Assembly: GCA_016212275.1 (NCBI GenBank)
Contig: JACRGR010000062.1
Coordinates: 1-29,521 of the forward strand
Reading direction: 5' to 3'
DNA: 29,521 nt
Source: Nitrospinota bacterium
GTDB lineage: Bacteria; Nitrospinota_A; UBA7883; JACRGQ01
Part shown: positions 4,077-29,521 of the stretch, piece by piece
How the letters are laid out: every line of letters starts with the position of its first letter
Numbering within the stretch: the first letter of the stretch is position 1
The notes under the pieces: generated by a model
Seen by the model: the letters and a program-made list of their open reading frames with translations, nothing else
Databases searched by the model: none
What the model was told of the DNA's origin: nothing
Made by a program: the position numbers and the translations under genes

Positions 4077-4088
4077 TTATTCCTCTCA

Positions 4089-4134
4089 TTTCGCCCGATG
4101 GGCGAAACGCGGACAGGAGTGTCCGCGCCACCAA
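4089..4134 (+). repeat. twin-hairpin REP-like repeat, copy A (intercistronic, inside the Ehr-like operon)
   Basis: tttcgccc-gat-gggcgaaa followed by cgcggaca-ggag-tgtccgcg and then ccaccaa. Near-identical copies occur at 23933-23973 (direct) and 23861-23899 (inverted). Confidence 0.6.
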
Positions 4135-4155
4135 CGGGGACCAGCATCATTCTCA

Positions 4156-7169: not shown

Positions 7170-7837
7170 GCCCCCTCGTGCTCCTTGAGCTTTTCCATTT
7201 CCTTCAGGTCCAGGCTGTCGAACGTGGTGCGTATCTGGAAAATGAATATGCCGAATATGAACGCCGCGATGAGGATGTCCAGCGCCACGCCCAGCTCGAT
7301 GACCAGCGGCATCCCGTAGGTGGCGCTGGTGGCGGCGAAGAACAGGCCGTTCTCCAGCGCGAGGAACCCGATGATCTGCGTGACCGCCTTTTTGCGGGTG
7401 ATCATCATCAAAAAGCCGAGCAAAACCGTGGAGAGCGCCACCGCCAGCGTGGTGCGCGTGACCAGCGTGGAAAGCTCGCGGATGGGCGCCGTGAGGTGGT
7501 AGGAGAATATCACCAGCACGATGCCGATGAGCATGGTGGCCGGGATGTTCACCAGCGGCTCCACGTCGCGGTATATGTTCAGCCGGTTCACGAGGACATA
7601 GAGGATGTACGGGAGCACCACGACCTTGAGCGTGAGCGTGAGCGCGGCGGAAATGTACAGGTGGTTCATGCCCGCCGTGTATGCCACCAGCGCGGTGCTG
7701 GCGGAAAGGAACAGCCCCTGCCACGCGAATATACGCAATAGCCCGTAGATGCGCCGCTGGACCAGCAGGCCGAACGAGGTGAGCAGGATGCACGCCGCCA
7801 GCACGTTGATGATCTGAGCGGTGAACGTCATTTTCAT
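7166..7837 (-). CDS. HyfE / NuoK-like small membrane subunit
   Basis: 223 aa polytopic membrane protein with GFLALENGLFFAATSATYGMPLVIELGVALDIL, as in hydrogenase-4 component E and NuoK. A 1-nt gap separates it from the upstream NuoH-like gene. Confidence 0.8.
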   Translation of the reverse strand: MKMTFTAQIINVLAACILLTSFGLLVQRRIYGLLRIFAWQGLFLSASTALVAYTAGMNHLYISAALTLTLKVVVLPYILYVLVNRLNIYRDVEPLVNIPATMLIGIVLVIFSYHLTAPIRELSTLVTRTTLAVALSTVLLGFLMMITRKKAVTQIIGFLALENGLFFAATSATYGMPLVIELGVALDILIAAFIFGIFIFQIRTTFDSLDLKEMEKLKEHEGA

Positions 7838-7838
7838 C

Positions 7839-8789: not shown

Positions 8790-10834
8790 AGCGCCACCAG
8801 CAGGAGGAAGAGGATAGTGAAGAAGGAATACGCCAGGTAGATGTGTATCCTTCCGTGTTGCAGACGCGCGGTGTGTTTGGCGAGGCGGAACGCGAGGTCC
8901 GCCACCGGGCGGTAGAACCAGCCCCAAGCGCGGTCGCGCACGCGAACGCTATAGTTCACTTTGGCGGGAAATTCCGCGGGACGTCCATCCGGCAGGCCGG
9001 GCCGCACCCGCTCCTTGATGTGGAACAGGTAGCCGAATATCAGCCGCGGCGGCATGGAGAAGGCGGTGGAAGTGTACTGCATGGTGGAAGTGATCTTCTC
9101 GAACCCGCAGTCCCACAGCGGCACGCGGTGGATGGCGCTTTTTTTCGAGCGGAGCGTGAGGAACACCACCAGCAAAACGGAGGCGATCCCCAGCAAAACC
9201 ATCGGCGCGGCGTACGAGGCGCGCTGGGCCGATACCGGCGTAAGCCACAGCCAGCCAACCTCCCCCGCGGATCTCGCGATGGTCTCCCCCGCCAGTTGCG
9301 ACGAGAGATTGCCCATCCACGCGATGACGACGGTGGGGAAAACGCCGAGCAACAGGCACGCGGTCGCCGCGATCATCATTCCCGCGCGCATCGAGGGGGT
9401 GGCGTCGTGCGCGGTTGCACATGCTTCGCTCCGGCAATGGCCGAGGAAGGTGACGCCGAACGCCTTGACGAAACAGGAGGCCGAGAGCGCGGCCACCAAC
9501 GCCAAAAGCGCCGCCCCCAGCGGGATGACGAGGTTCAAGTGCTGGCTGGGTAACGATGGCGACATGAGGAACGCCTGGAACGTGAGCCATTCGGACACGA
9601 ACCCGTTGAACGGGGGAAGCGCCGATATGGACAGGCACCCCACCAGGAACAGCGGCGCGGTCCATTTCATTTTGTGTATCAGCCCGCCCATCTTTTCCAT
9701 GTTCCGCACGCCGGTGGCATGGAGCACCGCGCCCGCCCCCATGAACAAAAGCCCCTTGAACATGGCGTGGTTGAGCGTGTGGTACAACGCGGCGGTGATG
9801 GCCAGCGCCGCCATCAGCGGCTGGTGGAACGAAAGGAATATCATCCCCAGCCCCAGCCCCACGAGGATGATGCCTATGTTCTCCACGGACGAGTAAGCCA
9901 ATAACCGCTTGAGGTCATTTTCCAATAATGCGGCCAGCACGCCCAGGATGGCGGATGCCAGCCCCACGGCCAGCACCAGTTCCCCCCACCACAGTTGCGG
10001 CGTGTGCAGAATGTCGAACGTGAAGCGCACGATGCCGTAAATGGCGGTCTTCAGCATCGCGCCGCTCATCAGGGCGGACACATTGCTCGGCGCGGCGGGG
10101 TGCGCTTCCGGAAGCCAGACATGGAGCGGGACGATGCCCGCTTTCGCGCCGAACCCCAAAAAGGCGAGCACAAAAGCGGTGCTCGCCCACGCCGGGGGAA
10201 GGCTTGCGCCGCGCATCGCGTCGAAGGTATATCCGTGAAACGTGTCGAACCCGGCGGCGAACCCCGCCATCACGCCGAACGCCAGGAGGATCGCCACCGC
10301 ACCGATGTGCGCCACCACCAAATAAATGTAAGCGGCACGGCGGTTCTCCACCACGCCATCTTCATACAGGACGAGGAAATAGGAAGCGGCGGCCATCAGT
10401 TCCCACGAGATGAGGAAAAAATAGGCGTCGTCCGATACGAGCACCAAAAGCATCCCCGCGAGAAACAGCGGGTAAAAGATGGCGAGGTGGGTGACGGATC
10501 TTTTGCCGATGAACCCGGCGATATATCCCCGTGAGTAAATCGAAACGCAAAACGCCAAGAGCGAAACAACGGTTATGAAAAACCCCGAAAGCGGGTCGAG
10601 CCGGAGGTGGAACGGCAGGTCGGGAAGCCCGACGGGAAGAATAAGCGTTTCCGCCTCCCCGCCCGCCACTGCCAGTATCCCCGCGAAAAGGGAAAACAGG
10701 GAAGCGGCTGAAAAAACCGGGAAAATGATTGAAACAATAAGGTGTTGGCGCCGGTGGAACAATGGCACTATGGCCACGGACGCGATAAGGATGAATATGG
10801 CGGTTAAGACTAGGCTACTTAAAGAACCTTCCAT
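8786..10834 (-). CDS. NuoL / HyfB-like long antiporter-type membrane subunit
   Basis: 682 aa. VWLPEAHPAAPSNVSALMSGAMLKTAIYGIVRF and a long C-terminal extension as in HyfB/NuoL. First gene of the minus-strand operon. Confidence 0.88.
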   Translation of the reverse strand: MEGSLSSLVLTAIFILIASVAIVPLFHRRQHLIVSIIFPVFSAASLFSLFAGILAVAGGEAETLILPVGLPDLPFHLRLDPLSGFFITVVSLLAFCVSIYSRGYIAGFIGKRSVTHLAIFYPLFLAGMLLVLVSDDAYFFLISWELMAAASYFLVLYEDGVVENRRAAYIYLVVAHIGAVAILLAFGVMAGFAAGFDTFHGYTFDAMRGASLPPAWASTAFVLAFLGFGAKAGIVPLHVWLPEAHPAAPSNVSALMSGAMLKTAIYGIVRFTFDILHTPQLWWGELVLAVGLASAILGVLAALLENDLKRLLAYSSVENIGIILVGLGLGMIFLSFHQPLMAALAITAALYHTLNHAMFKGLLFMGAGAVLHATGVRNMEKMGGLIHKMKWTAPLFLVGCLSISALPPFNGFVSEWLTFQAFLMSPSLPSQHLNLVIPLGAALLALVAALSASCFVKAFGVTFLGHCRSEACATAHDATPSMRAGMMIAATACLLLGVFPTVVIAWMGNLSSQLAGETIARSAGEVGWLWLTPVSAQRASYAAPMVLLGIASVLLVVFLTLRSKKSAIHRVPLWDCGFEKITSTMQYTSTAFSMPPRLIFGYLFHIKERVRPGLPDGRPAEFPAKVNYSVRVRDRAWGWFYRPVADLAFRLAKHTARLQHGRIHIYLAYSFFTILFLLLVAL

Positions 10835-15364: not shown

Positions 15365-16237
15365 ATGGCGATAGGTAATAAACTGGTCAGCGCGGTCATC
15401 CTCACATGGAACCGCAAGGACGACCTGAAAGAAACACTGGAACGGCTCCGGGAACAGCCCTACTCCCCGATTGAAATTATCGTGGTGGACAACGCCTCCA
15501 CCGACGGCACCGACGGAATGGTCCGCTCGTCGTTCCCGGAGGTGGTGTACCTTCCACAGAAAGAGAACCGGGGCATCGCCGGGTATAACGCGGGCTTCAT
15601 GGCGGCGCGCGGCGATTATATCGTGGCGCTGGATTCCGATTCGCACCCCGAACCGGAAGCCATGGGGCGGATGGTAACACTGTTTGAAAAAAATCCAACG
15701 GCGGGGATCGTGGCGTTCGACGTACACGCCTCGCCCGGCGGAAAACCGATACCGGAGGGCGCGCCAGTGGCGGAGGTGGCGGGATACCACGGCGCGGGCG
15801 TGGGATTCCGCGCGGAAGTATTCCAAAAGGCGGGGTACTGGTACGAGCCGTTTTTCCTCTACTTCAACGAGATGGACCACGCCCTTCGCGCGCTCATGGC
15901 GGGATACCGCATCATCACCTCCCCAGCCGTGCGCGCGGTACACCGGTCGTCGCCGGTGGCGCGCCCTTCCGAACGGGGAGCGTATTTTTATGCGCGTAAC
16001 GCGCTGTGGGTGATTTGGCGGCACTACCCGGCGCGGGAAATGTTTTCGGCCACCGCGCAATTCGTCTGGCTGGCGGTATCGGAAAGCCTGTACCAGCGCA
16101 CCGGGGTGTATTTGCGGGCGGTGCGGGATGCGTTCGCGGCGGCACCCGGAGTTGTGCGCGGGCGGAATCCACTTCCGCCGAACATTTTCGAAAAGGTCCG
16201 CATCCCCCTCCACCTCGTATTCACGAGGTTCGAATGA
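15365..16237 (+). CDS. family 2 glycosyltransferase (GT-A fold)
   Basis: 290 aa. VSAVILTWNRKDDLKETLERL...IIVVDNASTDGT...YIVALDSDS is the classic GT2 N-terminal motif set. Confidence 0.85.
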   Translation: MAIGNKLVSAVILTWNRKDDLKETLERLREQPYSPIEIIVVDNASTDGTDGMVRSSFPEVVYLPQKENRGIAGYNAGFMAARGDYIVALDSDSHPEPEAMGRMVTLFEKNPTAGIVAFDVHASPGGKPIPEGAPVAEVAGYHGAGVGFRAEVFQKAGYWYEPFFLYFNEMDHALRALMAGYRIITSPAVRAVHRSSPVARPSERGAYFYARNALWVIWRHYPAREMFSATAQFVWLAVSESLYQRTGVYLRAVRDAFAAAPGVVRGRNPLPPNIFEKVRIPLHLVFTRFE

Positions 16238-16758
16238 AAACACTGGTCATCCGCTCGGCATCACTTGAACGGTTCGACGCGCTGGCCCAAAAGCTCGGCC
16301 TGAACGCCGGATACACCGATCCGGTGGAAGTGCTCACCCATCCGCATGCAACGGAAGCGTTAAGAGCGAATTACCCTACGGTCACTGTGGTTGAATATCC
16401 GTATACGGGTGGGTTTTGCCGCCATGCCGTAAAACAGATGGTGCGGGCGGGTTCACTTGCCAAAGATCATTCGGAGATAATCGTTTTGTGCGGCAACGTT
16501 TCAGGCGGCGGCCACTTCAATGCCATCCGGGCCGCGCACGAAGCGGGGAGCAACGTGTTCCTCTTCAACACGGCGGGGGAACTGGTTCCGGCGCCGCCCG
16601 CCCAAGTTCGGCGCGAGGCGACTCGGAGATTACTCTTATTTCCCGCCGCGGTATTTGGTACAATTCTCGTGCTTGCTTTGGGGGTACCGTGGCTCGCGGC
16701 CTGCCTGATTTTGGGCAAGGCCGTCAGCGGGAAAAATAGTAGTGAAAAAACAGGTTAA
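16234..16758 (+). CDS. hypothetical protein with a C-terminal TM anchor
   Basis: 174 aa from an ATG that overlaps the GT2 stop (ATGA): MKTLVIRSASLERFDALAQKLGL...IIVLCGNVSGGGHFNAIRAAHEAGSNVFLF, with a C-terminal hydrophobic helix LLLFPAAVFGTILVLALGVPWLAACLILG. No family recognised. Overlaps the next gene by 17 nt. Confidence 0.6.
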   Translation: MKTLVIRSASLERFDALAQKLGLNAGYTDPVEVLTHPHATEALRANYPTVTVVEYPYTGGFCRHAVKQMVRAGSLAKDHSEIIVLCGNVSGGGHFNAIRAAHEAGSNVFLFNTAGELVPAPPAQVRREATRRLLLFPAAVFGTILVLALGVPWLAACLILGKAVSGKNSSEKTG

Positions 16759-17722
16759 TGTCCTTATCACCGCCGCGTCGCGGCGCGTGGCGCTTATCCG
16801 CGGTTTCGCCGAAGGGCTGAAAAAGGCGGGGGCCGCGGGCCGTGTGGTGGTTACCGATTCCGATCCGCTTTCGCCGGGACTCTTTTTCTGTTCCGGGCAC
16901 CACATCGTCCCGCTCGCCACATCCCCCGACTACATCCCCGCGATCAAGGAGATATGCAAATCGGAGGACATCTCCCTGCTCATCCCCACGATTGACGAGG
17001 AGTTGCCGATATTCGGCAAGCATAAGGAAGAGTTCCGGCTGATGGGGGTGCGCATCCCCGTGTCGGACGAAGAGATAGGGAATGTATGCAACGACAAATA
17101 CAAGACCTACCTCTTCTTCAAGGAGAACGGCCTGCCGTTCGCCGAAACATGGTTGCCGGACGAGGTGCGGAAGCTCAAGCCGGAACTGCCGCTCTTCATC
17201 AAACCGCGGTTCGGGCGCGGCGCGGTGCAGGCCTATCCGATATTCAAAAAAAAGGAACTCGATTTCTTCCTCGACTATGTGCAGGACCCGATAGTGCAAA
17301 GGTTCCTGCCCGGCAAAGAATACACGGTGGACGTGCTGTGCGATTTCGAGGGGCGGGTGATCTCGGTGGTGCCCCGGCACCGGATGGTGATCCGCTCCGG
17401 CGTGTGCGACCGCGGCATGACGGAAAAAAATCAAAAGCTGATGGCCCTCGCCGAAGAGGCCGCAAAGAAACTGCGCCTCGTGGGGGCGGCCAACCTGCAG
17501 TGCAAGGTGGATGGCGACAACATCCAGTTCTTCGAAGTGAACGCCCGCTTCTCCGGCGCGATCCAGCTGACCATCAACGCGGGGGCCGATTTTCCCCACA
17601 TGATGCTCCAGATGCTCAACGGCGGCGTGAAACCCTGCATCGGCGAGTTCGAAGACAAGCTGACGATGGTGAGTTACGAGGAAAGCCTGTACCGCCACCC
17701 CGCGAACGGGCGGAAAAACTGA
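16742..17722 (+). CDS. ATP-grasp domain protein (carbamoyl-phosphate-synthase-like ligase fold)
   Basis: 326 aa. PLFIKPRFGRGAVQAYPI...EYTVDVLCDFEGRVISVVPRHRM...ANLQCKVDGDNIQFFEVNARFSG matches ATP-grasp fold hallmarks. GTG start. Confidence 0.8.
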   Translation: MKKQVNVLITAASRRVALIRGFAEGLKKAGAAGRVVVTDSDPLSPGLFFCSGHHIVPLATSPDYIPAIKEICKSEDISLLIPTIDEELPIFGKHKEEFRLMGVRIPVSDEEIGNVCNDKYKTYLFFKENGLPFAETWLPDEVRKLKPELPLFIKPRFGRGAVQAYPIFKKKELDFFLDYVQDPIVQRFLPGKEYTVDVLCDFEGRVISVVPRHRMVIRSGVCDRGMTEKNQKLMALAEEAAKKLRLVGAANLQCKVDGDNIQFFEVNARFSGAIQLTINAGADFPHMMLQMLNGGVKPCIGEFEDKLTMVSYEESLYRHPANGRKN

Positions 17723-17759
17723 AGCTATCCGCGCTTTTTCCGATAAGAAGCTAACGGTC

Positions 17760-18821
17760 ATGGCAAAAGTGTACAAAACCGCGGTGGTGGGATGCGGCCG
17801 GATAGCGTCCCTTCTGGAAGAAGACCCCCTGCGCGAAAAACCGGCCACCCACGCAGGCGCTCTCGCCGCGCACCCGGCCACAAAGATCGCCGCCGCGTGC
17901 GACATAAACGCCGAGCGGCTGGAACGCTTCGGCAGGAAGTGGGGCGTCCCTTCCCCCTATTGGTACCGCGACCACCGCGAAATGCTCCGCCGCGCACAGC
18001 CGGAGATCGTGAGCATCGCCACTTGGACGGACAGCCATTGCGAGATAGTTTTGGAGGCCGCCAAGACCCCTTCCGTCAAGGGCATCTATTGCGAAAAACC
18101 GATCGCCTCCAGCATGTCGGAGGCGGACCGGATGATAGCGGCGTGCAAAAAACGCGGCATCCCGCTGGTTATAGGGCACGAGCGGCGCTTCGACGCGAAC
18201 TTCGTGCGCGTGAAGGAGATCATCGAGAAGGGAACGCTGGGGAAGCTGAAAACCATTTTCGCGCAGGCTCTCTCCTTGCCCGTCCCCGCCTTGCCCCGCA
18301 AAAAATATGTGGGAGGCACCCTGTTGCACGACGGCACCCACCTGATGGACCTGGCGCTATATTTCGGCGGCCCGGCAAAATGGGTGATCGGCTTCAACAA
18401 GCGCCCCTACGGCAAGGAGAACATCGAGACCACCGCTGGCGGCATCATCAAGATGGAAAACGACGTGACCGTGTTCGTGGAAGGCGGCGGCGAGCGGGAA
18501 TACTTCAAGTTCGACCTCGATCTCCAATTCGAGCGCGGCAGGATACTTATCGGCAATTCCGGCATCCACGCTTTCGCGGCGGGGAAAAGCCGTCACTATA
18601 CGGGGTTCCGCGAACTGCACCCGGTGCCGTTCCCCGCGCCGAAAACGCGGGTGAACTCGCTGGTGGGGGGCGTGGCGGAAGTCGTGCGCGCCATACGCAC
18701 CGGCAAGGAGCCGGTATCCAACGGGCAGGACGCGCGCGACGCGCTGGCGCTCATCATGGCGGTGTATGAATCGGCGGGCGCCGACGGCAAAAAGATACGC
18801 ATCGGGAACGGCCTAGGGTGA
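17760..18821 (+). CDS. Gfo/Idh/MocA-family NAD(P)-dependent oxidoreductase
   Basis: 353 aa. N-terminal Rossmann motif TAVVGCGRIAS, then EKPIASSMSEADRMIAACKKRGIPLVIGHERRF typical of the family. Confidence 0.88.
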   Translation: MAKVYKTAVVGCGRIASLLEEDPLREKPATHAGALAAHPATKIAAACDINAERLERFGRKWGVPSPYWYRDHREMLRRAQPEIVSIATWTDSHCEIVLEAAKTPSVKGIYCEKPIASSMSEADRMIAACKKRGIPLVIGHERRFDANFVRVKEIIEKGTLGKLKTIFAQALSLPVPALPRKKYVGGTLLHDGTHLMDLALYFGGPAKWVIGFNKRPYGKENIETTAGGIIKMENDVTVFVEGGGEREYFKFDLDLQFERGRILIGNSGIHAFAAGKSRHYTGFRELHPVPFPAPKTRVNSLVGGVAEVVRAIRTGKEPVSNGQDARDALALIMAVYESAGADGKKIRIGNGLG

Positions 18822-19558
18822 GCGCCAACCCGGTCGTTATCATCCAGGCGCGGATGGGTTCCACCCGCCTGCCCGGCAAAACGATGATGGAAATTGCCGG
18901 TCGCCGACTTATTGATTGGGTATTGGATGGCGCGCGGGCAATAAAGAACGCGCGCGGTATCATCGTGGCGATTCCCGAAAACCCGGAGGATGATCCGCTT
19001 GAGGCCTATCTAAATGAGCGCGGCGTTTCCTGCTTCCGCGGCTCGTCCGAAGATGTACTGGACCGCTTTTACCGCGCCGCGCTGGAAGCAAAAGCGGACC
19101 CGGTTATCCGTCTGTGCGCCGATAGTCCCCTCCCCTCGGCGGAATATATGGACATGATGATAGAAACACACCTGAAGACCGGCGCGGACCACACGCATAA
19201 CGACGGGCTGTTCCCGCTCGGCTCGTATGGCGAGGTGGTCTCGTTCACTACACTGGAACGGATGTGGCGCGAGGCGAAGACGGTGCATTGCCGCGAACAT
19301 GTGACGCCGTTCATCCACGAAAACCCGCAGTCCTTCCGCGTGAACCGTGTTCAGGCTCCCGCATGGATGCAAAGGGACTACCGGCTGACGATAGACACGG
19401 CGAAGGACAGGGAGATGATGGAAACGCTCTTCCGCGCGATGATGGATCAGGGCCTTCCGGTGAATTTCACGAACGCGATGGCGGTGCTGGAAGCCCGGCC
19501 GGAGATCGCGGCCATCAATTCGACGGTGCCGCAAAAAGACTGGCGCAAGGGGGAGTGA
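18818..19558 (+). CDS. sugar cytidylyltransferase (KdsB/NeuA/SpsF-like GT-A fold)
   Basis: 246 aa. VVIIQARMGSTRLPGKTMMEIAGRRLIDWV matches the ARxxSxRxPxK motif of CMP-sugar synthetases. GTG start overlapping the upstream stop. Confidence 0.85.
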   Translation: MSANPVVIIQARMGSTRLPGKTMMEIAGRRLIDWVLDGARAIKNARGIIVAIPENPEDDPLEAYLNERGVSCFRGSSEDVLDRFYRAALEAKADPVIRLCADSPLPSAEYMDMMIETHLKTGADHTHNDGLFPLGSYGEVVSFTTLERMWREAKTVHCREHVTPFIHENPQSFRVNRVQAPAWMQRDYRLTIDTAKDREMMETLFRAMMDQGLPVNFTNAMAVLEARPEIAAINSTVPQKDWRKGE

Positions 19559-19567
19559 GCGGAACGG

Positions 19568-20029
19568 TTACAAAATATCCTTGAAGCGGCCCTGCGATGC
19601 GCGCAGGCGCAGGCTGATGTTCTTCGCCAACCCTTTGAGCACCTTAATCCCGGTCTTCGGCTGTTCGTCCAATATCTTGTCGAACTTGTATTTGGTCAAT
19701 ATCAGTATCTCGCACGGCGTGGCGGTCCGCACCGTGGCGGAACGCTCGTAGTCGTCCAATAGCGCCATTTCCCCCACCGACGCGCCCGGGCCGAAATTGG
19801 CGATGATCCGGTGCTTTTTTCCGTCCCCCGTCAGGCTCACCTCCACCATGCCGTCGATCACGAAGAACAGGTAGTCCCCCATCTCCCCCTCGCTGAACAG
19901 CACGGTTCCCTCGTCCACCTGCCGCAGGCTTAAATACTGCGTGAACATCCGAATCTCGTCATCGCTGAACGAGTCGAAGAACGGCAGACCCTTGACCACA
20001 TTGATGACGTTTTCCCGCGTGCGTTCCAT
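19568..20029 (-). CDS. stand-alone cyclic-nucleotide-binding (CAP_ED) domain protein
   Basis: 153 aa from an ATG preceded by AAAGGGG: FGPGASVGEMALLDDYERSATVRTATPCEIL carries the GE.AL...RSA phosphate-binding cassette. No output domain. An upstream TTG/ATG at 20047 is a possible alternative start. Confidence 0.85.
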   Translation of the reverse strand: MERTRENVINVVKGLPFFDSFSDDEIRMFTQYLSLRQVDEGTVLFSEGEMGDYLFFVIDGMVEVSLTGDGKKHRIIANFGPGASVGEMALLDDYERSATVRTATPCEILILTKYKFDKILDEQPKTGIKVLKGLAKNISLRLRASQGRFKDIL

Positions 20030-20043
20030 ACAATTCGCCCCTT

Positions 20044-22098
20044 TCAATCGGTATTCATCAGGAACAGCCGGTGTTGGCCTTGAATCCCTTTAAGTTCAAA
20101 AAAGCCGATGAGACGGGTTACGAACCCGGCCTCCTTCGTTATATCCGTATTCACCGATTCGGTGAGCACCACCCGGTTCACCAGCGGCAGTTCTTCCGGC
20201 TTCATGCCCCCGTCCGCCGGTTTCATCCCGGCGGCCTTCACCCCTTCCACGCGGAAGGTCATATTCACGGCGGTGCCGAGGCGGTCCCCTTTGTCGTCCA
20301 CGCGGGTCTCCCCCTGGTTGATGGCGATGCGTATGTCTATCCGCTCCTGCGGGGGGAGCGTCTCGTTGGTCCGGCGCATGGTCAGGAGTATCTCCTTGGC
20401 GAAATTGACGGCGTTCTTCACTTCGTTGAAGGTCATCAGATAGCCGTCGCCGGTGCTCTTGGTGAACTTCACGCGGTATTTCGAGGCGATCGGCTTCGTC
20501 AATTCCACCAGCCGGTTGGTGAGCTTGAAGGCGAAGTCGTCGCCGTACTTCGAGCCGATGTCGGTGGAGTTGGCGAGGTCGAGCACCAAGATGGCTTCCT
20601 TGAGCACCTTCACGTTCCCCACCAGCGGGCTGGTGAAGATGGTGCTCCCGCCGGTCCACTTGCTCCGCTCCTGCTCGGCGATGATCTGGTTGGCCTTCAC
20701 CGCGTGGCCGGTCATCTGCTTGATGATGTCCAGCGCGGTGTCACGCATCTCGGCGTCGGAATCTTTCACGCAGGCTTTTATCAGCGGTAGCGTGGCCTTT
20801 TCCTGCGCGCGGCCCAGCGCCTTCAGCGCCTCCAGGCGCACGGTGCGCTCCGGGTCGTCAAGAAAATCGGCAAGGTATGAAATGGCCTTTTCGCCGCCGA
20901 TCTCCCCCAGCGCGGCGGGCACGGTCCAGCGCACGTCGTGGTCGTCGGCCAGCGGCAGGATATGCTCGATGGCGCGCTCGTCCTTCATCTTGCCCAGCGC
21001 CACCACCGCCTTTTCGCGCACCCACCAATCCTTGTCGTTCAGCATTCCCAGCAGAGGCTCGAACGCCGCCTTGTCCGGCACACGCACGAAATACTCGATG
21101 GCGGCTCTGCGCACGTTCTCGTCCGGCGTCGCGAAAAGCTCGATGACGCGGGCGGCGACCCCCGGCACGTTCATCACCGCCAGCGCGTCGGTGGCGATCT
21201 CCCGTACCCACCAGTCGGCGTCCTGTATGCACCGGATCAGCGTTTCGGAGCCTTTCACGTTCTTGAGCTTGCTCAGTATCTCCACGCCGGCCCTGCGGAC
21301 GTTCACCTCCGCGTCCCGCATGAAGTTGATGATCTCCGGCACGATGGTCTCGTCCGCGATGTTCTCCAGCGCCTCCACCACGGCCTGCCGCACTATCATG
21401 TCGTTGTCCGTGATGCTCGGCAGTATCACCCGCGCGGCGCGCACGTTCCCCACCTGCCCCAAGGTCTGGATGACCGTTATCTTTATCTTCGGGTCCTTCT
21501 CCAGCGAGAGCAGGTCCACCAGCGCGTCAATGGAGGCGGGATCCTTTATCCTGCAGATGGCCTCGACCGCTTTTTTACGCACCCACCAGTCGGGCGATTT
21601 CAATAGGGGAAGCAGGAAGGCGCTGGCCTTCGCCCCGCCCACATCCGCTATCAGCCCCATGCTCACGCTCTTGAGATCCTTGTCCTCCTCGGAGAGGTAG
21701 GGAATCAGTTTCTCGGCCACCGAGGGCGAGGCAAGCGCGCGCAAAAGTTCCGCTATCCCCCGTCGGCAGGTGGCGTCCGCATCCTTCAACCGCTCCACGA
21801 GGCGCGCGACCGCGCCGGGGCCGGTCTTTTGCTGGATGATCTCGCGGGCGCGTGTGCGCAACTGCTCTTTGCTGTCGCCCAAAAGCGTGATGTAACCGTC
21901 GAGCATCTCCTTGTCATAGAGGCTGGCAAGGTATTTGTCCAGATCGGCAAAAAGTATCTTGTTCGCCTTGAAGGCGTCCACCAAAGCTTTCAGCCCGTCT
22001 TCGCCGTATTCGCGCAGGGACTTTAAGGTCTCGGCGTGGTCTTTTCCCACCTCGGTAAGCTGGGAAATGAGCCGCGATATTTTGAACCCTTCAAACAT
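20044..22098 (-). CDS. HEAT-repeat (PBS-lyase type) protein fused to a class III adenylate/guanylate cyclase catalytic domain
   Basis: 684 aa. Repeated DPDWWVRKKAVEAI / DADWWVREIATDAL / DKDWWVREKAVVAL HEAT-like units. C-terminal cyclase core ILVLDLANSTDIGS...KFTKSTGDGYLMTF...GTAVNMTFRVEG with the metal-Asp, Lys and Asn/Arg positions present. Confidence 0.85.
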   Translation of the reverse strand: MFEGFKISRLISQLTEVGKDHAETLKSLREYGEDGLKALVDAFKANKILFADLDKYLASLYDKEMLDGYITLLGDSKEQLRTRAREIIQQKTGPGAVARLVERLKDADATCRRGIAELLRALASPSVAEKLIPYLSEEDKDLKSVSMGLIADVGGAKASAFLLPLLKSPDWWVRKKAVEAICRIKDPASIDALVDLLSLEKDPKIKITVIQTLGQVGNVRAARVILPSITDNDMIVRQAVVEALENIADETIVPEIINFMRDAEVNVRRAGVEILSKLKNVKGSETLIRCIQDADWWVREIATDALAVMNVPGVAARVIELFATPDENVRRAAIEYFVRVPDKAAFEPLLGMLNDKDWWVREKAVVALGKMKDERAIEHILPLADDHDVRWTVPAALGEIGGEKAISYLADFLDDPERTVRLEALKALGRAQEKATLPLIKACVKDSDAEMRDTALDIIKQMTGHAVKANQIIAEQERSKWTGGSTIFTSPLVGNVKVLKEAILVLDLANSTDIGSKYGDDFAFKLTNRLVELTKPIASKYRVKFTKSTGDGYLMTFNEVKNAVNFAKEILLTMRRTNETLPPQERIDIRIAINQGETRVDDKGDRLGTAVNMTFRVEGVKAAGMKPADGGMKPEELPLVNRVVLTESVNTDITKEAGFVTRLIGFFELKGIQGQHRLFLMNTD

Positions 22099-22294
22099 CG
22101 TTCTTGTCTTTTCCCCAGTCCTTGGCCTTCCACAGGAACCGCAACAATAGCCACACGTTCACCGCCAACACGAACAATGCGGCGGCGATATACCAGCTTT
22201 TGTGCGTCAAAGTTGTCCTCGCTCCAAACCTCTCCCACCCCCGCGATGGAACACCGCGGGGATTAGGTGAGTTTACCATAAATCGCGGAAACAT
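22091..22294 (-). CDS. candidate small membrane protein (67 aa) overlapping the cyclase start
   Basis: ORF MFPRFMVNSPNPRGVPSRGWERFGARTTLTHKSWYIAAALFVLAVNVWLLLRFLWKAKDWGKDKNDV with one TM helix and high third-position GC. Its 3' end overlaps the cyclase start by 8 nt. An in-frame GTG at 22345 is an alternative start. No strong RBS. Confidence 0.25.
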   Translation of the reverse strand: MFPRFMVNSPNPRGVPSRGWERFGARTTLTHKSWYIAAALFVLAVNVWLLLRFLWKAKDWGKDKNDV

Positions 22295-22420
22295 CTTAAT
22301 TTGCGGCCCCAGCGCCTTCCGTGAACGGCAGAAATCTTCCCCCACCCCGCTCCGGGTGAGGTATTATGGACGTGGTTGGCATTTGCGCCGCCTCCAATAC
22401 AAATCACTCAAGGAGGACGT

Positions 22421-23179
22421 ATGGTTTATATCGCCGCATTGGTCATTTTGCTGTTCATAATCGTTCCGGCAAGCATCAAGATCATTTACGAATACGAGCG
22501 GGGCGTGGTGTTCCTCTTCGGTAAATACTTCGCCACCTACGACAAGGGGATAAAACTCCTCATTCCCGGCGTGATGACGATGGTGCGGGTGGATATGCGC
22601 CTCATCGCGCTGGACGTGCCGTCGCAAGACATCATCACGAAGGACAACGTGTCCATCACCATCAACGCGGTGGTGATGTACAAGGTAATGGAGGCCGAAA
22701 AGGCGGTCATCAAGGTGGGGGACTACCATTACAACGCCTCCCTGCTCTCGCAGACCACGCTCCGCGCCACCGTGGGCCAGCACGAGCTGGACGAGGTGCT
22801 GAGCATGCAGGATCGGATAAACGCGCGCCTGCAGGAACTGCTCGACCACCAGACCGACCCGTGGGGCATCAAGGTTGCCTCCGTGGCCATCAAGCATGTG
22901 GACTTGCCGCAGGAGATGAAGCGCGCAATGGCGAAGCAGGCCGAGGCCGAGCGGGAACGCCGCGCCAAGATCATCAACGCCGAAGGCGAACTGCAAGCCA
23001 GCGAAAAACTGATGCAGGCCGCCGAGATGATGGGCAAGCACCCGATGACGCTCCAATTGCGCTACCTGCAAACCCTGCGGGAGATCGCCACCGAGAACAA
23101 CTCCGTGACCGTGTTCCCGCTCCCGATGGACATTATCATGCCGATAGTGAAAGCGGCCTCTCAGGCATTAAACAAATAG
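22421..23179 (+). CDS. SPFH/band-7 (stomatin/prohibitin-like) membrane protein
   Basis: 252 aa from an ATG preceded by a perfect AAGGAGG. N-terminal TM helix MVYIAALVILLFIIV, then an SPFH core (YEYERGVVFLFGKY...) and a coiled-coil tail rich in AEAERERRAK. Confidence 0.88.
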   Translation: MVYIAALVILLFIIVPASIKIIYEYERGVVFLFGKYFATYDKGIKLLIPGVMTMVRVDMRLIALDVPSQDIITKDNVSITINAVVMYKVMEAEKAVIKVGDYHYNASLLSQTTLRATVGQHELDEVLSMQDRINARLQELLDHQTDPWGIKVASVAIKHVDLPQEMKRAMAKQAEAERERRAKIINAEGELQASEKLMQAAEMMGKHPMTLQLRYLQTLREIATENNSVTVFPLPMDIIMPIVKAASQALNK

Positions 23180-23860: not shown

Positions 23861-23899
23861 TGGTGGCACGGTCACTCCTGCCCGTGGCGTGTCCATCGG
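23861..23899 (-). repeat. REP-like repeat, copy C (inverted orientation, degenerate)
   Basis: The reverse complement ccgatggacacgccacgggcaggagtgaccgtgccacca aligns with copy A (ccgatgg...caggagtg...gccacca). Confidence 0.5.
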
Positions 23900-23932
23900 A
23901 CGCGCGCATTCCCTTTGCCCGGAAGTCTTGCG

Positions 23933-23973
23933 CCCTCTGGGCGTAACGCGGACAAGAGTGTCCGTGCCACCAA
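23933..23973 (+). repeat. REP-like repeat, copy B (direct orientation)
   Basis: ccctctgggcgtaacgcggacaagagtgtccgtgccaccaa versus copy A cccgatgggcgaaacgcggacaggagtgtccgcgccaccaa. The cgcggaca-NNNN-tgtccgYg hairpin is conserved. Copies B and C together form a roughly 113-nt imperfect palindrome. Confidence 0.6.
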
Positions 23974-24037
23974 TGAGATAGGACTTTTGCCGTGCGGAAA
24001 TCAATAATGCCGCGATCTTCCAATATGAACCGTTTAA

Positions 24038-24098
24038 TTGTCATGCCCGTGAAAACGGGCATCCAGAACCTGGATTCCCGCCTTCGCGGGAATGACAA
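24038..24098. other. 61-nt cloverleaf-like structured element (outer stem plus three hairpins) in the kdtA 5' region
   Basis: ttgtc [atgcccgt-gaaa-acgggcat] [ccag-aac-ctgg] a [ttcccgc-cttc-gcgggaa] t gacaa. All four stems are perfectly complementary. Loops are only 3-4 nt, so it is not a tRNA. Confidence 0.45.
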
Positions 24099-24134
24099 CC
24101 AGTATGTGCATCATTGTTTTTTTCGGCGCTGGCG

Positions 24135-25519: not shown

Positions 25520-26170
25520 ATGAGTGAAGCGGAAATCAAAAAACCGGTACGGGTGATACTGGTAGAGGACGACCTGCTCCAACTGGATGTGCTAAAACTG
25601 ACGCTGGCCTCGGATGACGACATCGAGGTCGTCGGCGCCTATTCGGATCCGCGAAAAGCGTACGAGGACTTGGACCGGTCAAAGCCGGAACTCTTGCTCA
25701 CCGACATCGGCCTGCCGGGCATGACCGGCATTGAACTGATCGAGATGGTGAAAAAGAAACTGCCGGAAATAGAGATCATCGCCCTCACGGTGTTCGAGGA
25801 CATAAAAACGGTATTCGAGGCGATCAAGGCGGGGGCCAACGGCTATCTCCTCAAAAGCTCGTCGGCCAAGGACCTTTTGAAAGCGATCAAGGATATCCGC
25901 GCCGGCGGCGCGCCGATCACCCCCAAGATCGCCCGCGCGATGCTCAAGGATTTCCAATCGAAGGATGATGGCGGTGATACGGCGCTCTCCAACCGGGAGC
26001 GGGAAATACTCCAGGAAGTGGAAAAGGGGCTGGGGTACAAGGAAGTTGCCGAAACGGTGAACCTGAGCGTACATACCGTCCACTGGCATATCAAAAATAT
26101 TTTCGCTAAATTGCACGCCAAGAACAAGCGCGACGCCATATCGAAGGCCAGGGAAAAAGGCATCCTGTAA
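25520..26170 (+). CDS. NarL/FixJ-family response regulator (REC + LuxR-type HTH)
   Basis: 216 aa. Receiver VRVILVEDD...LLLTDIGLPGMTG...KSS followed by the LuxR HTH REREILQEVEKGLGYKEVAETVNLSVHTVHWHIKNIFAKL. Confidence 0.9.
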   Translation: MSEAEIKKPVRVILVEDDLLQLDVLKLTLASDDDIEVVGAYSDPRKAYEDLDRSKPELLLTDIGLPGMTGIELIEMVKKKLPEIEIIALTVFEDIKTVFEAIKAGANGYLLKSSSAKDLLKAIKDIRAGGAPITPKIARAMLKDFQSKDDGGDTALSNREREILQEVEKGLGYKEVAETVNLSVHTVHWHIKNIFAKLHAKNKRDAISKAREKGIL

Positions 26171-26374: not shown

Positions 26375-28075
26375 CTACCTGATCTGGGAGCCGGGTTCGC
26401 TCTCGGAAAGTTTCTTGATCATTTCCTGACGCAGGTTCTTCAAGTCGCCATAAGCTGCGAATTTTTCCGACTGCATCAGCTTGGGATTCACATACAGCGC
26501 TTCCATCAGCGCGAACGACGCCTGGGCCTGGTCCTGCATCTCCAAGAAGGTGGCCGCAAGTTCGCACAGCACCCATTCGCGGTGGCGCGGCTTGTGCATC
26601 AGCACGGTGCGCAGGACGGCGATCGCCTCGTCCTGCTTCATTTTTTCTTTCAGGCCGGTGACGTGCCGCATCCCCGCCGTCTTCATGTTTTCCACCACGA
26701 TCTCGCGGTCGGGCACCTGGAATTTAAGGAGTTCGGCGTAAATATCGAACGCCTTGGCGTACTGCCCGTTTTTCCGCAATTCGATGGCGAAATTATTGAA
26801 CGCCGGCCCGGCGTTTTCCGGATCCTCCGCCACCAGTCCCCTGAATATCTCCTCCGCGCGGGCGTAGTGCCCGTACCGCGCGAGCAAAATGGCGCGGTCT
26901 ATACGGGTATCCTCGCTGTTGTCCGAGATCATGTCTTCCTGGTCCCGCACTTTGTCCAGCACCCCCGCGCCGAACGACGAGACCGCCTCTTCCATGTCGG
27001 CGAACCCGATCCCGCGCACGTCGCTCTCCGCCAATGCGTTGAGAATCGGCGCATACGGCACGGGCGGGAGCTTCTCCGGCGTGGCCTGGTACTTATTTTC
27101 CATGTCCACCACGATCCGTTCGGCGTCCTTGAGGTACTTCAGCCCCATATCGAACCACTTGCGGGCCTTTTCCTCCCCTTCCGTTTCCGCCGCCGTCTTC
27201 ACCAGCGAAAGGCAACAAGCGCCGATCTTCGCATACGGGTCGGGCAGGGACTTTTCCATCTTTGACGCCTCGCGGAAATCGGTCAAAGCCGGAACGAACT
27301 GCTTGGTCTTGTAATATGCCTCGCCGCGCTCCATGAGGATGCTGAAATTCGGCCCCAGCGCGATGGCCTGCGTGAAGCAGAGTATCGCGTCCTCGTAATT
27401 CCCCTTTTTCACAAGGTCTTCACCCTTGCCCATCAGCTCGCGGTATTGCTTCACCTTCGCCGGTTCTTCGGCGGGGGCCTCCGGCGGGGCGGCCTGGGGC
27501 GCGGGGCCGTCCGCCTTGAGGATCCCCGCGAACGAGGCCAATGCGGCGAGCGTCTCCTCCACGTTTTTTTCCACCGGCGCGCCGTGCGAGAGGAACACGG
27601 CGTACCGAATGCCGAACGCCCCCAGCAGTTTGAACATCTCCAATTGCTTTTGCGAACTGGCGGCGCTCACGAATACCGGCACCAGCCCCCCGAACCGGCA
27701 GGAGGGGGAAGTGGTCTTCACCTCCCGCAGTAAGTTTATAAGGTTGTAGTCGGTGAACTTCGGTTTGTAGTGCAACATGACCAGATGGCCGTTCCCCAGC
27801 CACTTGACGATGTTGTGCACCAGCACCTTTACCTGCTGGTCCGGCTGGGGGTGGCTTTGGAACCCGATTCGCGTGAGCACGTCGGACATCTCGGTGGCGA
27901 GCGCCGCGTCCTCGACGCGGTAGGATACATGCCCGAACCGTTGGACGAGGGAATCCAGTATCGGCGCGTATTCGAGCGCTATCCTCTGTTTGAAAGGAAG
28001 GTTCTTGAGCGCGTCCTTGCTCGGCGTTTTGCCGGGCTTGGAAGCGCCCGGATTGCCGTCTTCGCCATTCCCCAT
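26375..28075 (-). CDS. TPR-repeat protein with an N-terminal domain of unknown type (possibly a degenerate receiver) and a Pro/Ala-rich linker
   Basis: 566 aa. The C-terminal two thirds are canonical TPR units (e.g. YEDAILCFTQAIALGPNFSILMERGEAYYKTKQFVPAL). A PEAPAEEPAK linker follows the N-terminal 190-aa domain. A 3-nt gap separates it from the upstream REC-TPR gene. Confidence 0.8.
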   Translation of the reverse strand: MGNGEDGNPGASKPGKTPSKDALKNLPFKQRIALEYAPILDSLVQRFGHVSYRVEDAALATEMSDVLTRIGFQSHPQPDQQVKVLVHNIVKWLGNGHLVMLHYKPKFTDYNLINLLREVKTTSPSCRFGGLVPVFVSAASSQKQLEMFKLLGAFGIRYAVFLSHGAPVEKNVEETLAALASFAGILKADGPAPQAAPPEAPAEEPAKVKQYRELMGKGEDLVKKGNYEDAILCFTQAIALGPNFSILMERGEAYYKTKQFVPALTDFREASKMEKSLPDPYAKIGACCLSLVKTAAETEGEEKARKWFDMGLKYLKDAERIVVDMENKYQATPEKLPPVPYAPILNALAESDVRGIGFADMEEAVSSFGAGVLDKVRDQEDMISDNSEDTRIDRAILLARYGHYARAEEIFRGLVAEDPENAGPAFNNFAIELRKNGQYAKAFDIYAELLKFQVPDREIVVENMKTAGMRHVTGLKEKMKQDEAIAVLRTVLMHKPRHREWVLCELAATFLEMQDQAQASFALMEALYVNPKLMQSEKFAAYGDLKNLRQEMIKKLSESEPGSQIR

Positions 28076-28078
28076 AGG

Positions 28079-29284
28079 TCAGCCTTTCGGATTTTGCATG
28101 CGGCGGGCAAGCGTCTCGAGTTCTTTTTTCGCTTCCTGCAAACGGGGGTTGAGGTGCGTGACCTTCGTGAAGAGCTTGAACGCCTCTTCCAGCTTGTTCC
28201 CCTCCACATACGCCTTGGCCATATTGAAGTACAGCCCTTCGTCGTGCGGGTCCACCTTGATGGCCTTTTCGTATTCCGTGATCGCCTCCTGCCATTTCCC
28301 CTGCCGGCGCAGGGCGATACCCAGCCGGTTGTAGATATGCACGCTATCGGCGTGCTTCTCCAGCGTTTTCCGGAAAAACCCTTCCGCCATTTGGGGCTTG
28401 CCCTGGGTGAGCAGTTCTTCCGCGATCTCGGTGGCCTTGCGCGGATCATACCGCACCGCGTTTTCAAGCGCCGCGCGGGCCGCTACGTCGTCCCCTTTTT
28501 TCATGTGTATCTTGGCGATCTCCACATGCCGCTCCGCGTTCGCCGGGCTTATCTCGGACGCTTTTTGGAGCGAGGAGAGGGCGGCGGCTTCGTCCCCCTG
28601 CTTCATGTACACTTCGGCGCTTTTCACATGCGCCTTCAGGTACTGCGGGTTGCTGACCACCGCCTCCTGGTACACCGCTTGGGCCTTGTCGTACTCGCCC
28701 ATCAGTTCGTGCAGATCCCCGATGTGCACCAGCACGCGGGCGCTCCCCTGCTTGTTCATCACCTCGTTGAAAACTGCCAGCGCCTTTTCGTACTGCCCCA
28801 TTTTCGCCAGCGCCTCGCCGGCCTTGAGCAGTTTCACATATTCCGGTGGATTTTCCCGCGCGTCCAGGATGGCCTCTATTTTCTCTTCCAGCGTCTTGGC
28901 CACGAACGGCTTGATGATATAGCCGTTCACGCCTATTTCCCCCGCCTGGGCCACTTGCCCCTTGTCTATCTCGGCGGTCACCATCAGTATCGGGGTGTCG
29001 TGTATCTTCGCGTCGGACCGTATCTCCCGCGCCGCGTGAATGCCGGGCAGGCGGGGCATATTCCAATCCAAGAGGGCGAAGAGGCACTTCTCCTCGTGGG
29101 TCTTGATGACCTTGATGGCGGTATCGCCGTCTTCCGCTTCGACGACGTTCATGATCCCCACTTGGCGGAGCATGTTCTTGAGCGTCTTCCGCATGTTGGA
29201 CATATCGTCCGCCACGAGGATATAGCCGCCTTTGAAATAGTCAGCCAGGGATAAAGGTTTTTTCCCTTGATCGGTAGAACTCAT
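28079..29284 (-). CDS. response-regulator receiver domain fused to TPR repeats
   Basis: 401 aa from an ATG overlapping the upstream stop (ATGA). CheY-like REC YILVADDMSNMRKTL...ALLDWNMPRLPGI...ILMVTAEID...GYIIKPF, then TPR units. The 29-aa N-terminal extension in the ORF track was rejected. Confidence 0.85.
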   Translation of the reverse strand: MSSTDQGKKPLSLADYFKGGYILVADDMSNMRKTLKNMLRQVGIMNVVEAEDGDTAIKVIKTHEEKCLFALLDWNMPRLPGIHAAREIRSDAKIHDTPILMVTAEIDKGQVAQAGEIGVNGYIIKPFVAKTLEEKIEAILDARENPPEYVKLLKAGEALAKMGQYEKALAVFNEVMNKQGSARVLVHIGDLHELMGEYDKAQAVYQEAVVSNPQYLKAHVKSAEVYMKQGDEAAALSSLQKASEISPANAERHVEIAKIHMKKGDDVAARAALENAVRYDPRKATEIAEELLTQGKPQMAEGFFRKTLEKHADSVHIYNRLGIALRRQGKWQEAITEYEKAIKVDPHDEGLYFNMAKAYVEGNKLEEAFKLFTKVTHLNPRLQEAKKELETLARRMQNPKG

Positions 29285-29521
29285 GCCTTGGCGCTTCCCT
29301 GGAATAACGCATCCAGTTCCTCCTTGGCTTCCTTGAAATCGGGTTGAAGTTCCGCCGCCTTCGAGAAGCATTTAGCCGCTTCCCGCTTGTTCCGTCCTTC
29401 AAGGTAAGCCTTCCCCATATTGAAATAGATTACCTCGTCTTCCGGGTCAATTGCCAGCGCTAGTTTATACTCGTCCACCGCCTCTTTCCATTTCCCCTGC
29501 CGCCGCAGGGCGATACCCAAG
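29281..29521 (-). CDS. TPR-repeat protein, C-terminal fragment (gene continues beyond the window end); paralogous to the C-terminus of the downstream REC-TPR protein
   Basis: ...GIALRRQGKWKEAVDEYKLALAIDPEDEVIYFNMGKAYLEGRNKREAAKCFSKAAELQPDFKEAKEELDALF* is closely similar to the C-terminus of the 28079-29284 protein (LGIALRRQGKWQEAITEYEKAIKVDPHDEGLYFNMAKAYVEG...). Confidence 0.7.
   Translation of the reverse strand, partial: LGIALRRQGKWKEAVDEYKLALAIDPEDEVIYFNMGKAYLEGRNKREAAKCFSKAAELQPDFKEAKEELDALFQGSAKA

Follow-up and report, generated by a model that had tools for sequence, protein, structure and literature searches.

Gene arrangement of the locus

Here, we describe a three-gene locus on the minus strand of a 29,521-nucleotide (nt) stretch of chromosomal DNA from an uncultured Nitrospinota bacterium (GenBank assembly GCA_016212275.1, contig JACRGR010000062.1, positions 1 to 29,521; hereafter the window), in which a HEAT-repeat protein with a predicted class III nucleotidyl cyclase domain is encoded directly upstream of a stand-alone cyclic nucleotide monophosphate (cNMP)-binding protein, referred to below as the receptor. 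The central gene (20044..22098), read from its ATG, encodes 684 amino acids (aa) plus a stop codon and comprises an N-terminal HEAT alpha-solenoid (aa 1-480, 20659..22098; Pfam, AlphaFold2 (AF2), and Foldseek), a flexible linker (aa 481-497, SKWTGGSTIFTSPLVGN, 20608..20658; AF2 confidence and alignment), and a C-terminal catalytic domain with class IIIc-like features (aa 498-684, 20047..20607; phmmer against the PDB, Foldseek, and residues), within which lies a family-specific insertion after helix alpha4 (aa 619-641, GVKAAGMKPADGGMKPEELPLVN, 20176..20244; homologue alignments). The receptor gene (19568..20029; Pfam, AF2, and Foldseek) encodes 153 aa plus a stop codon, and on the other side a small open reading frame (ORF) of 39 aa plus a stop codon (22091..22210; TTG start, conserved codons) overlaps the cyclase start and encodes a predicted membrane protein. 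The preliminary description of this DNA, made from the sequence alone, had placed three ORFs here, and the ORF list bears out their coordinates, on the minus strand.

The cNMP-binding ORF can be read from a TTG (19568-20047) or from the ATG at 20029 (153 aa). Its orthologues begin at the ATG (MERT...), and the gap after the cyclase stop codon is therefore 14 nt (20030..20043), including an AAGGGG ribosome-binding site at 20038-20043. At the 3' end, the receptor stop codon (TAA, 19568-19570) lies 9 nt from the end of a convergent CTP_transf_3 cytidylyltransferase gene (18818-19558, plus strand). At the 5' end, an SPFH/Band_7 gene diverges (22421-23179, plus strand; the Band_7 match uses the start at 22421), and the intergenic region that it shares with the three genes (22211..22420) is presumed to hold the operon promoter. 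By gene arrangement, the three co-oriented minus-strand genes constitute the whole operon. A scan of 19300-22700 for sigma-70 promoters and terminators returned nothing above shuffle expectation, so the boundaries of the operon are set by gene arrangement alone; no Rfam family matched anywhere in the window.

The HEAT solenoid and its linker

The N-terminal part of the 684-aa protein is recognized strongly by Pfam (HEAT_2, 1.3e-59; HEAT_PBS, 8.6e-24). In an AF2 model built on 38 homologues, with a mean predicted local distance difference test score (pLDDT) of 88.9, aa 1-480 form 30 helices in approximately 15 repeats, mostly with pLDDT above 90; these are the tandem helix-turn-helix repeats of about 31 aa, stacked into an alpha-solenoid, that characterize the HEAT and PBS-lyase type. 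Foldseek searches with the solenoid matched the PP2A PR65 subunit and alphaRep proteins. The repeats had been described as D-x-D-WWVR units; they are genuine HEAT repeats, but WWVR occurs in only three of the approximately 15 (aa 171, 296, and 358). The NCBIfam profiles for NblB (99.8 bits against a cut-off of 300) and CpcE (94.1 against 330) scored far below their equivalog cut-offs, and the relation to phycobilin lyases and NblB is thus one of repeat similarity only.

The approximately 38 full-length homologues (about 685 aa) share the start M1-F2-E3. Along the solenoid, the conservation profile is highest over aa 241-420, where conservation is comparable to that of the catalytic core. The linker that follows is modelled as coil (aa 480-495, pLDDT below 50) and varies in length in the homologue alignment, and the AF2 model contains no coiled-coil or cyclase-transducer helix between the solenoid and the catalytic domain.

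Identity and catalytic residues of the cyclase domain

The Pfam profile for class III cyclases, PF00211 (Guanylate_cyc), gave 15.8 bits (E-value 0.011) on this protein, under its gathering score of 21.9, so the domain searches proposed in the preliminary description supported HEAT_2, HEAT_PBS, and cNMP_binding strongly but not the cyclase. Among the 39 closest homologues (query coverage of at least 85%), only one has a precomputed match to this Pfam family, and NCBI annotates the 684-aa protein solely by its repeats, an identical database protein (P0001) being named 'HEAT repeat domain-containing protein [Nitrospinae bacterium]'. Because of the sub-threshold score, the cyclase identity was checked independently through PDB sequence matches and fold. 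A phmmer search of the PDB with the C-terminal 206 residues retrieved 3mr7 (4.2e-11), Ma1120 (about 1e-7), and Rv1900c (0.065), and AF2 models aa 498-684 as an alpha/beta domain with pLDDT of about 79-95, which Foldseek superposed on Ma1120 (5d0h; TM-score 0.91, root-mean-square deviation 2.4 Å) and Rv1900c (1ybu; TM-score 0.87) at 22-23% identity.

The predicted catalytic set consists of D507 and D551 (metal binding), K547 and D605 (adenine specifying), N612 and R616 (transition state), and K670. In the HMMER alignment to Ma1120, K547 corresponds to K101, D605 to D157, N612 to position 164 (Ala in Ma1120), and R616 to R168. Across 38 full-length homologues, with identities as low as 36%, each of the seven positions is either invariant or conserved to at least 90%. 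Substitutions of the metal-binding aspartates or of the Asn/Arg pair, which would have contradicted the earlier claim of an intact enzyme, were looked for and none was present. Guanylyl cyclases carry Glu together with Cys, Ser, Gly, or another residue at the purine-specifying positions. At these positions, K547 and D605 form the Lys/Asp pair of adenylate cyclases, so the alignment check on ATP versus GTP yields a predicted ATP-type enzyme. A mutational study of Ma1120 identified K101/D157 as the ATP-specifying pair and positions 164/168 as the transition-state pair, and noted that guanylyl cyclases have Glu where adenylyl cyclases have Lys (PMC4215837). By homology, modelled fold, and predicted catalytic set, the C-terminal domain is a class III cyclase, and from its residues it looks catalytically competent and ATP-specific.

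With respect to subclass, Ma1120 and Rv1900c are the best matches in sequence and fold, and the aligned span is 123 residues against 121 in Ma1120 and 122 against 133 in RhGC, about 11 shorter than the latter, a length comparison that bears on a possible class IIIc membership. In the Linder and Schultz classification, class IIIc, to which Ma1120 and Rv1900c belong, is defined by a dimerisation arm that is shortened relative to classes IIIa and IIIb. The insertion at aa 619-641 (consensus GGMKPEEMPLxNR) separates helix alpha4 from the next strand and is conserved in both homologue alignments, and the alignments to 3mr7, Ma1120, RhGC, and Rv1900c end at domain residue 146 or so (about aa 624), just inside it. 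A phmmer search with aa 483-684 returned 202 cluster representatives at E ≤ 1e-10; the relatives sampled among them include fusions with short HEAT arrays, Fe-hydrogenase-like/ferredoxin modules, protein kinases, CHASE2, TPR, and M48-like regions, and their Pfam cyclase scores are 19.7-33 bits or absent. The catalytic domain thus belongs to a poorly detected but ordinary modular class III subfamily.

One member of the family has departed from this pattern. In protein P0036 (locus L037, 1947-4109), the catalytic residues are degenerate, with LDQ in place of LDL, NSADSG in place of KSTGDG, and the Asn/Arg pair missing; the family architecture is kept, a cNMP-binding gene lies 459 nt downstream, and from its residues the protein is probably a pseudo-cyclase offshoot. 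The existence of such a protein, together with the low Pfam score, lends some substance to the idea that the domain in the window is itself non-catalytic and serves as a dimerisation or regulatory module of the HEAT scaffold. This is very improbable, as the window protein and at least 90% of its homologues retain all seven catalytic residues, and a conserved cNMP-binding partner is hard to explain without a cyclic-nucleotide product.

The stand-alone cNMP-binding protein

The 153-aa protein consists of a single PF00027 (cNMP_binding) domain (79.6 bits against a cut-off of 27.5; 1.7e-22). The residues of its phosphate-binding cassette (G86-E87...R96-S97-A98) do not vary among 29 homologues, nor among all 40 receptors linked to a cyclase. 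The AF2 model (pLDDT 88.8) shows the canonical beta-barrel followed by a 29-residue C-helix (aa 124-152) and nothing further. In a Foldseek search, it comes closest to the stand-alone protein Mfla_1926 (3gyd; TMq 0.86), with the N-terminal halves of CRP-family regulators ranking next.

The absence of an effector domain, a central element of the preliminary description, holds up: the chain ends at the C-helix 14 nt downstream of the cyclase with its cassette intact, no effector domain was detected in any reading frame or by Pfam scan, and no helix-turn-helix Pfam family matched. A fusion to an effector in an alternative reading was specifically considered, and no frame provides one; trimming to the conserved start brings all 26 receptor orthologues downstream of a cyclase, whose raw ORFs span 150-188 aa, to about 150-160 aa. 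The NCBIfam CRP profile reached 56.6 bits against a cut-off of 266 and covered only its N-terminal 136 positions. Since the receptor has no helix-turn-helix domain, it is not a CRP-type transcription factor; as modelled, it amounts to a CRP truncated behind the C-helix. More distant stand-alone homologues adjoin genes for a sigma-54 activator, an AAA protein, and a GGDEF protein, and such proteins therefore accompany diverse signalling partners.

The small membrane protein

The third gene encodes a 39-aa protein, (M)THKSWYIAAALFVLAVNVWLLLRFLWKAKDWGKDKNDV, which starts at a TTG at 22210 that is preceded, 5 nt upstream, by a GAGGA ribosome-binding site (22216-22220). Its TGA stop codon overlaps the cyclase ATG by 8 nt (ATGTTTGA). 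A longer version had been proposed, since the ORF can be read over 22091-22345 to give 84 aa from a GTG or 67 aa from an ATG. The small transmembrane ORF that overlaps the cyclase start is real, but it is shorter than proposed: when the overlapping frame was translated in all loci, conservation was limited to the last 39 codons or so, and the orthologues have in-frame stop codons just upstream of their ATG. The 5' extension to 22294 or 22345 was therefore rejected.

Orthologues of 39-45 aa with ATG starts occupy the same position in loci L002, L003, L005, L007, and L008, with a partial copy in L001. Differences between them are concentrated at the third codon position (0.27/0.20/0.585 for positions one to three; L001 and L002 differ at 0/0/6 positions), and the stop codon overlaps the cyclase in most, lies 5 nt before its ATG in L008, and lies further downstream in L005. 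The third-position substitutions and the variable stop indicate that the conservation is not a by-product of the cyclase reading frame. The 19-residue Kyte-Doolittle maximum of the protein is 2.31. In the public protein collection, 13 clusters of 39-47 aa have been called as genes, one of them upstream of another HEAT-cyclase (L083). Judged from these patterns, the small ORF is a genuine gene for a predicted 39-aa single-pass membrane protein that is restricted to the closest relatives.

Conservation of the enzyme-receptor pair

A degenerate-pattern scan of one genome per species yielded 57 loci with full-length homologues of the cyclase, distributed over Nitrospinota, Nitrospirota, and Desulfobacterota. 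The Nitrospirota loci come mostly from magnetotactic organisms ('Candidatus Magnetobacterium', 'Magnetominusculus', and relatives). When the ORFs of these loci and the window (58 sequences) were clustered all against all, the bare cNMP-binding protein emerged as the only neighbour family conserved beyond close relatives, being present in 40 loci. In 26 of them, including the window, a gene for a receptor of some 153-160 aa lies immediately downstream on the same strand, in most cases with a gap of 0-40 nt. The other 14, all Nitrospirota, have a receptor gene of 128-130 aa located 126-232 nt upstream on the same strand, and these products are bona fide cNMP-binding domains (77-79 bits) with an intact cassette. 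A phmmer search from the window receptor gives 1e-36 to 1e-65 within the downstream type and 1e-4 to 1e-6 to the upstream type; by sequence, the two types are different subfamilies. The recruitment of two receptor subfamilies to one cyclase family implies that the pairing has been maintained independently or is ancient, and the linkage of two distinct bare receptors to one cyclase family provides good genomic support for a working enzyme-receptor pair and, less directly, for a product that is a cyclic nucleotide.

Phosphorylation-related genes occur beside the cyclase in some lineages. A PP2C and FHA protein pair adjoins the HEAT-cyclase in seven loci, three from Desulfobacterota and four from Nitrospirota (L013 4016-5594, L015 4318-5914, L016 265-2118, L021 8149-9675, L026 6311-7855, L036 10516-12045, and L047 11031-12575), often accompanied by Ser/Thr kinases that carry a fused cNMP-binding or CHASE2 domain (such as L026 4721-6106, L032 8182-9615, and L015 1837-4164). 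Hanks-type Ser/Thr kinases lie near the cyclase in 11 loci, several of them fused to a cNMP-binding domain, a count that carries no claim of enrichment, and kinase-cNMP fusions adjoin the cyclase in several loci of Nitrospirota and Nitrospinota. Many of the matches in HEAT-only loci (L058-L079) are themselves HEAT-kinase fusions, which makes these loci unfit as a background for kinase co-occurrence. The kinase, PP2C, and FHA neighbours point to crosstalk between cyclic adenosine monophosphate (cAMP) and Ser/Thr phosphorylation in some lineages; no gene for a Hanks-type Ser/Thr kinase, PP2C, or FHA protein is present on the 29.5-kb contig studied here.

With a cyclase gene ahead of one for a cNMP-binding protein, the gene order also recalls the Pycsar anti-phage systems, in which an infection-triggered cyclase would activate a responding cNMP-binding effector, and the receptor matches the cNMP-binding part of the PADLOC PycTIR/effector models at 1.6e-15. 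For the pair in the window, such a role is scarcely credible. The receptor has neither a TIR nor a transmembrane killing domain, the PycC models match the cyclase insignificantly (E-values 0.01-0.017), and its Lys/Asp residues are of the purine, adenine type. In three phyla, the pair has been inherited amid housekeeping genes, with neither mobile-element nor defence genes nearby; in the window, the surrounding genes include leuD/leuB/asd, a complex-I-like [NiFe]-hydrogenase operon, sugar-nucleotide genes, the SPFH gene, and kdtA. A defence-system identity was rejected on the PADLOC results and this genomic context.

A model for the HEAT-cyclase and its receptor

We propose, with a probability of roughly 60%, that the locus encodes a soluble, homodimeric adenylate cyclase regulated through its HEAT platform, together with a dedicated receptor for its cAMP that has no effector domain and is probably a dimer. 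In this model, which draws on sequence comparison and structure prediction, the cyclase domain would assemble as a head-to-tail homodimer and most likely convert ATP to 3',5'-cAMP, as suggested by the complete D/D-K/D-N/R set. The HEAT solenoid would act as a protein-docking platform, with the conserved central repeats (aa 241-420) as the presumptive docking surface; as the linker is disordered and there is no rigid transducer helix, control by partner binding, occlusion, or dimerisation is more plausible than transduction through a helix. The cognate receptor, a CRP-like cAMP-binding domain with a C-helix, probably forms a dimer and, having no DNA-binding or other effector domain, would have to act in trans via cAMP-dependent protein contacts, an idea in keeping with the signalling genes found beside its more distant stand-alone homologues. 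It may serve as a regulatory subunit that can dissociate from its docking partner, either the cyclase or another protein, thereby providing feedback or relaying the cAMP level. The 39-aa membrane protein would be translationally coupled to the cyclase as a lineage-specific accessory, possibly a membrane tether. The gene structures, the folds, the catalytic and ligand-binding residues, and the conservation of the gene pair are shown by the analysis, and we infer ATP as the substrate, the dimeric state, and all physical contacts among the three proteins.

A more elaborate version of this model can be formulated, which is speculative and, taken as a whole, improbable in our estimate. The HEAT-cyclase and the receptor might constitute an autoregulatory unit resembling a holoenzyme, in which the receptor dimer docks on the conserved central repeats and cAMP triggers its release or recruitment, thereby exerting feedback on cAMP synthesis. 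Kinase-cNMP fusions, PP2C, and FHA proteins might then connect this unit, in Desulfobacterota and in magnetotactic Nitrospirota, to a eukaryote-like cAMP/phospho-Ser/Thr network, and in the Nitrospinota clade the 39-aa protein might tether it to the membrane.

Several observations weigh against the proposed adenylate cyclase and its dedicated receptor, in addition to the Pfam score and the HEAT-only annotation given above. The canonical Asn, which the window protein retains, is detrimental in Ma1120, and residual guanylyl cyclase activity has been recorded for that enzyme (PMC4215837); in bacterial class III cyclases, the residues at the substrate-specifying positions predict specificity only imperfectly. 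The small ORF is not found in L004, L006, or any distant locus in translations of the overlapping frame, and its 47-aa members in L080 and L082 (both 4001-4144) overlap the stop codon of a radical-SAM CofH_C gene (futalosine/F420-type) by 4 nt and are followed by a bPH_2 protein, directly in L080 and beyond a 99-aa ORF in L082. The link of the small protein to the cyclase may thus be only positional; it is lineage-restricted and not exclusive to this operon. Finally, of the 42 loci in which both flanks extend for at least 700 nt, 31 have an adjacent receptor and 11, including the close relative L007, do not, so the pairing is not obligatory. The self-contained module envisaged in the preliminary description therefore survives as a conserved pair, but not as a closed unit, given these 11 loci and the lineages that add kinase-cNMP fusions, PP2C, and FHA proteins.

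The leakiness of specificity rules in bacterial class III enzymes, as seen in the Ma1120 side activity (PMC4215837), raises the question of a product other than cAMP, either cyclic GMP (cGMP) or a pyrimidine cNMP, that the receptor would sense. Weak matches to the PADLOC PycC models can be cited in its favour. In addition, the R-S-A cassette, as found in CAP and PKG, does not discriminate strongly between cAMP and cGMP. Such a product is nevertheless improbable, as K547 and D605 are adenine-specifying and both at least 90% conserved, the PycC matches are insignificant, and the closest solved relatives are adenylyl cyclases.

The loci without an adjacent receptor, together with the kinase-cNMP fusions that reveal further cAMP targets in some loci and the related stand-alone proteins found beside sigma-54 activator, AAA, and GGDEF genes, would also make sense if the receptor were a buffer or sink for cAMP, or a regulatory subunit of an unlinked target such as a kinase, an AAA+ protein, or a transcription factor, and if the HEAT solenoid sensed something else. 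We regard this arrangement as possible, if rather unlikely. Direct partnership fits better with the tight same-strand adjacency (0-40 nt in most downstream-type loci), and two receptor subfamilies recruited to one cyclase family are more than a shared regulon would predict.

Other features of the contig

Away from the operon, the window contains several gene sets and one unusual repeat. The minus-strand operon at 3546-10834 encodes subunits resembling complex I and group-4 [NiFe]-hydrogenases, including a 20-kDa subunit, a fused 30/49-kDa-NiFeSe large subunit, two Proton_antipo_M proteins, and an NADHdh (NuoH-like) protein, as well as a 223-aa protein without a Pfam match. Other signalling genes of the contig (11097-13478, plus; 25520-26170, plus; 26375-29371, minus) encode a PAS-PAS histidine kinase, a receiver-LuxR response regulator, and TPR and receiver-TPR proteins. 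Convergent to the cyclase operon is a sugar-nucleotide or surface-polysaccharide gene set (15365-19558, plus), which comprises a PylC-like ATP-grasp protein, a GFO/IDH/MocA oxidoreductase, the CTP_transf_3 cytidylyltransferase, and a probable glycosyltransferase, recognized solely by its N-terminal sequence.

The spacer that separates the DUF374 and kdtA-like genes contains a 24-nt inverted repeat whose pairing closes a very stable three-way-junction fold (23861-23973, plus; minimum free energy -70.5 kcal/mol, z = -7.2 against shuffles), for which no Rfam family was matched. Copies of the arm occur at 23949-23972 (minus) and 4110-4133 (minus); the latter, a third copy with three mismatches (chance expectation, 0 copies), is flanked by two hydrogenase-like genes. 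In the syntenic loci L003 and L007, the DUF374 and kdtA-like genes abut, and the element therefore resembles an inserted dispersed palindrome (similar to repetitive extragenic palindromes or miniature inverted-repeat transposable elements). Adjoining it, two short GC-rich hairpins, gtcatgcccgtgaaaacgggcat and attcccgccttcgcgggaat (24035-24100), produce a spurious minus-strand ORF, 'SFPRRRESRFWMPVFTGMT'.

Significance

Some annotation pipelines label homologues of the 684-aa protein 'HEAT repeat protein/class 3 adenylate cyclase' or 'Guanylate cyclase domain-containing protein', and in the literature searched we found no description of a HEAT-linked class III cyclase or of a HEAT-cyclase/receptor gene pair, and nothing specific on stand-alone cNMP-binding proteins. 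Class III adenylate cyclases are modular, and a characterized case of control through a long alpha-solenoid without a rigid transducer helix was not found in the literature, nor was one of a cyclase genetically locked to an effector-less cAMP-binding protein. A cAMP synthase with a receptor is already known in kind; the unusual part is the combination of solenoid input and effector-less receptor. Given the HEAT-repeat label at NCBI and the sub-threshold Pfam score, the family largely escapes routine annotation, and cAMP signalling capacity is probably under-counted in Nitrospinota, magnetotactic Nitrospirota, and Desulfobacterota. Stand-alone cNMP-binding proteins are common in bacterial genomes and have been solved only by structural genomics (3gyd), and the conserved pair offers a tractable, testable model for how they transmit signals. 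Short of proof that receptor and HEAT domain form a direct feedback complex, the advance is an incremental one and not a conceptual one.

Comparison with known systems

Among solved class III cyclases, Ma1120 (5d0h, 4wp9), Rv1900c (1ybt, 1ybu), and the Silicibacter protein 3mr7 resemble the window domain in catalytic fold (TM-scores of 0.87-0.91 for Ma1120 and Rv1900c) and in the spacing of the metal-binding Asp pair, the Lys/Asp pair, and the transition-state Arg. They differ in what precedes the enzyme: Rv1900c has an N-terminal alpha/beta-hydrolase and the other relatives have nothing, whereas the window protein has a 480-aa HEAT solenoid and a disordered linker. Ma1120 has Ala at the canonical Asn position, whereas the window protein keeps N612, and the conserved insertion of about 15-20 aa after helix alpha4 is peculiar to the window family. 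PP2A PR65/A, alphaRep, CpcE, and NblB share the repeat type and solenoid geometry of the N-terminal half, although none of them has an enzyme domain of the window type.

The receptor shares its barrel, cassette, and C-helix with Mfla_1926 (3gyd) and with the corresponding halves of CRP/CAP proteins (Thermus thermophilus CAP, 4ev0; Mycobacterium tuberculosis CRP, 3d0s; Clr, 7pzb). Like 3gyd, it ends after the helix; its genetic pairing with a cyclase sets it apart from 3gyd, for which no partner is known, and unlike the CRP-family regulators it carries no helix-turn-helix domain. The Pycsar systems likewise consist of two genes, one for a class III-like cyclase and one for a cNMP-binding protein, but the window pair has no effector domain, carries adenine-type residues, lies in a housekeeping context, and has a distribution that looks vertical. 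A bare cNMP module that signals only through protein contacts would also follow the logic of PKA-type regulation, although the receptor has no inhibitor or pseudosubstrate segment and only a single cNMP-binding domain. Bacterial Ser/Thr kinase-cNMP fusions are a further point of comparison; they flank the cyclase, along with PP2C and FHA proteins, in some of the related loci.

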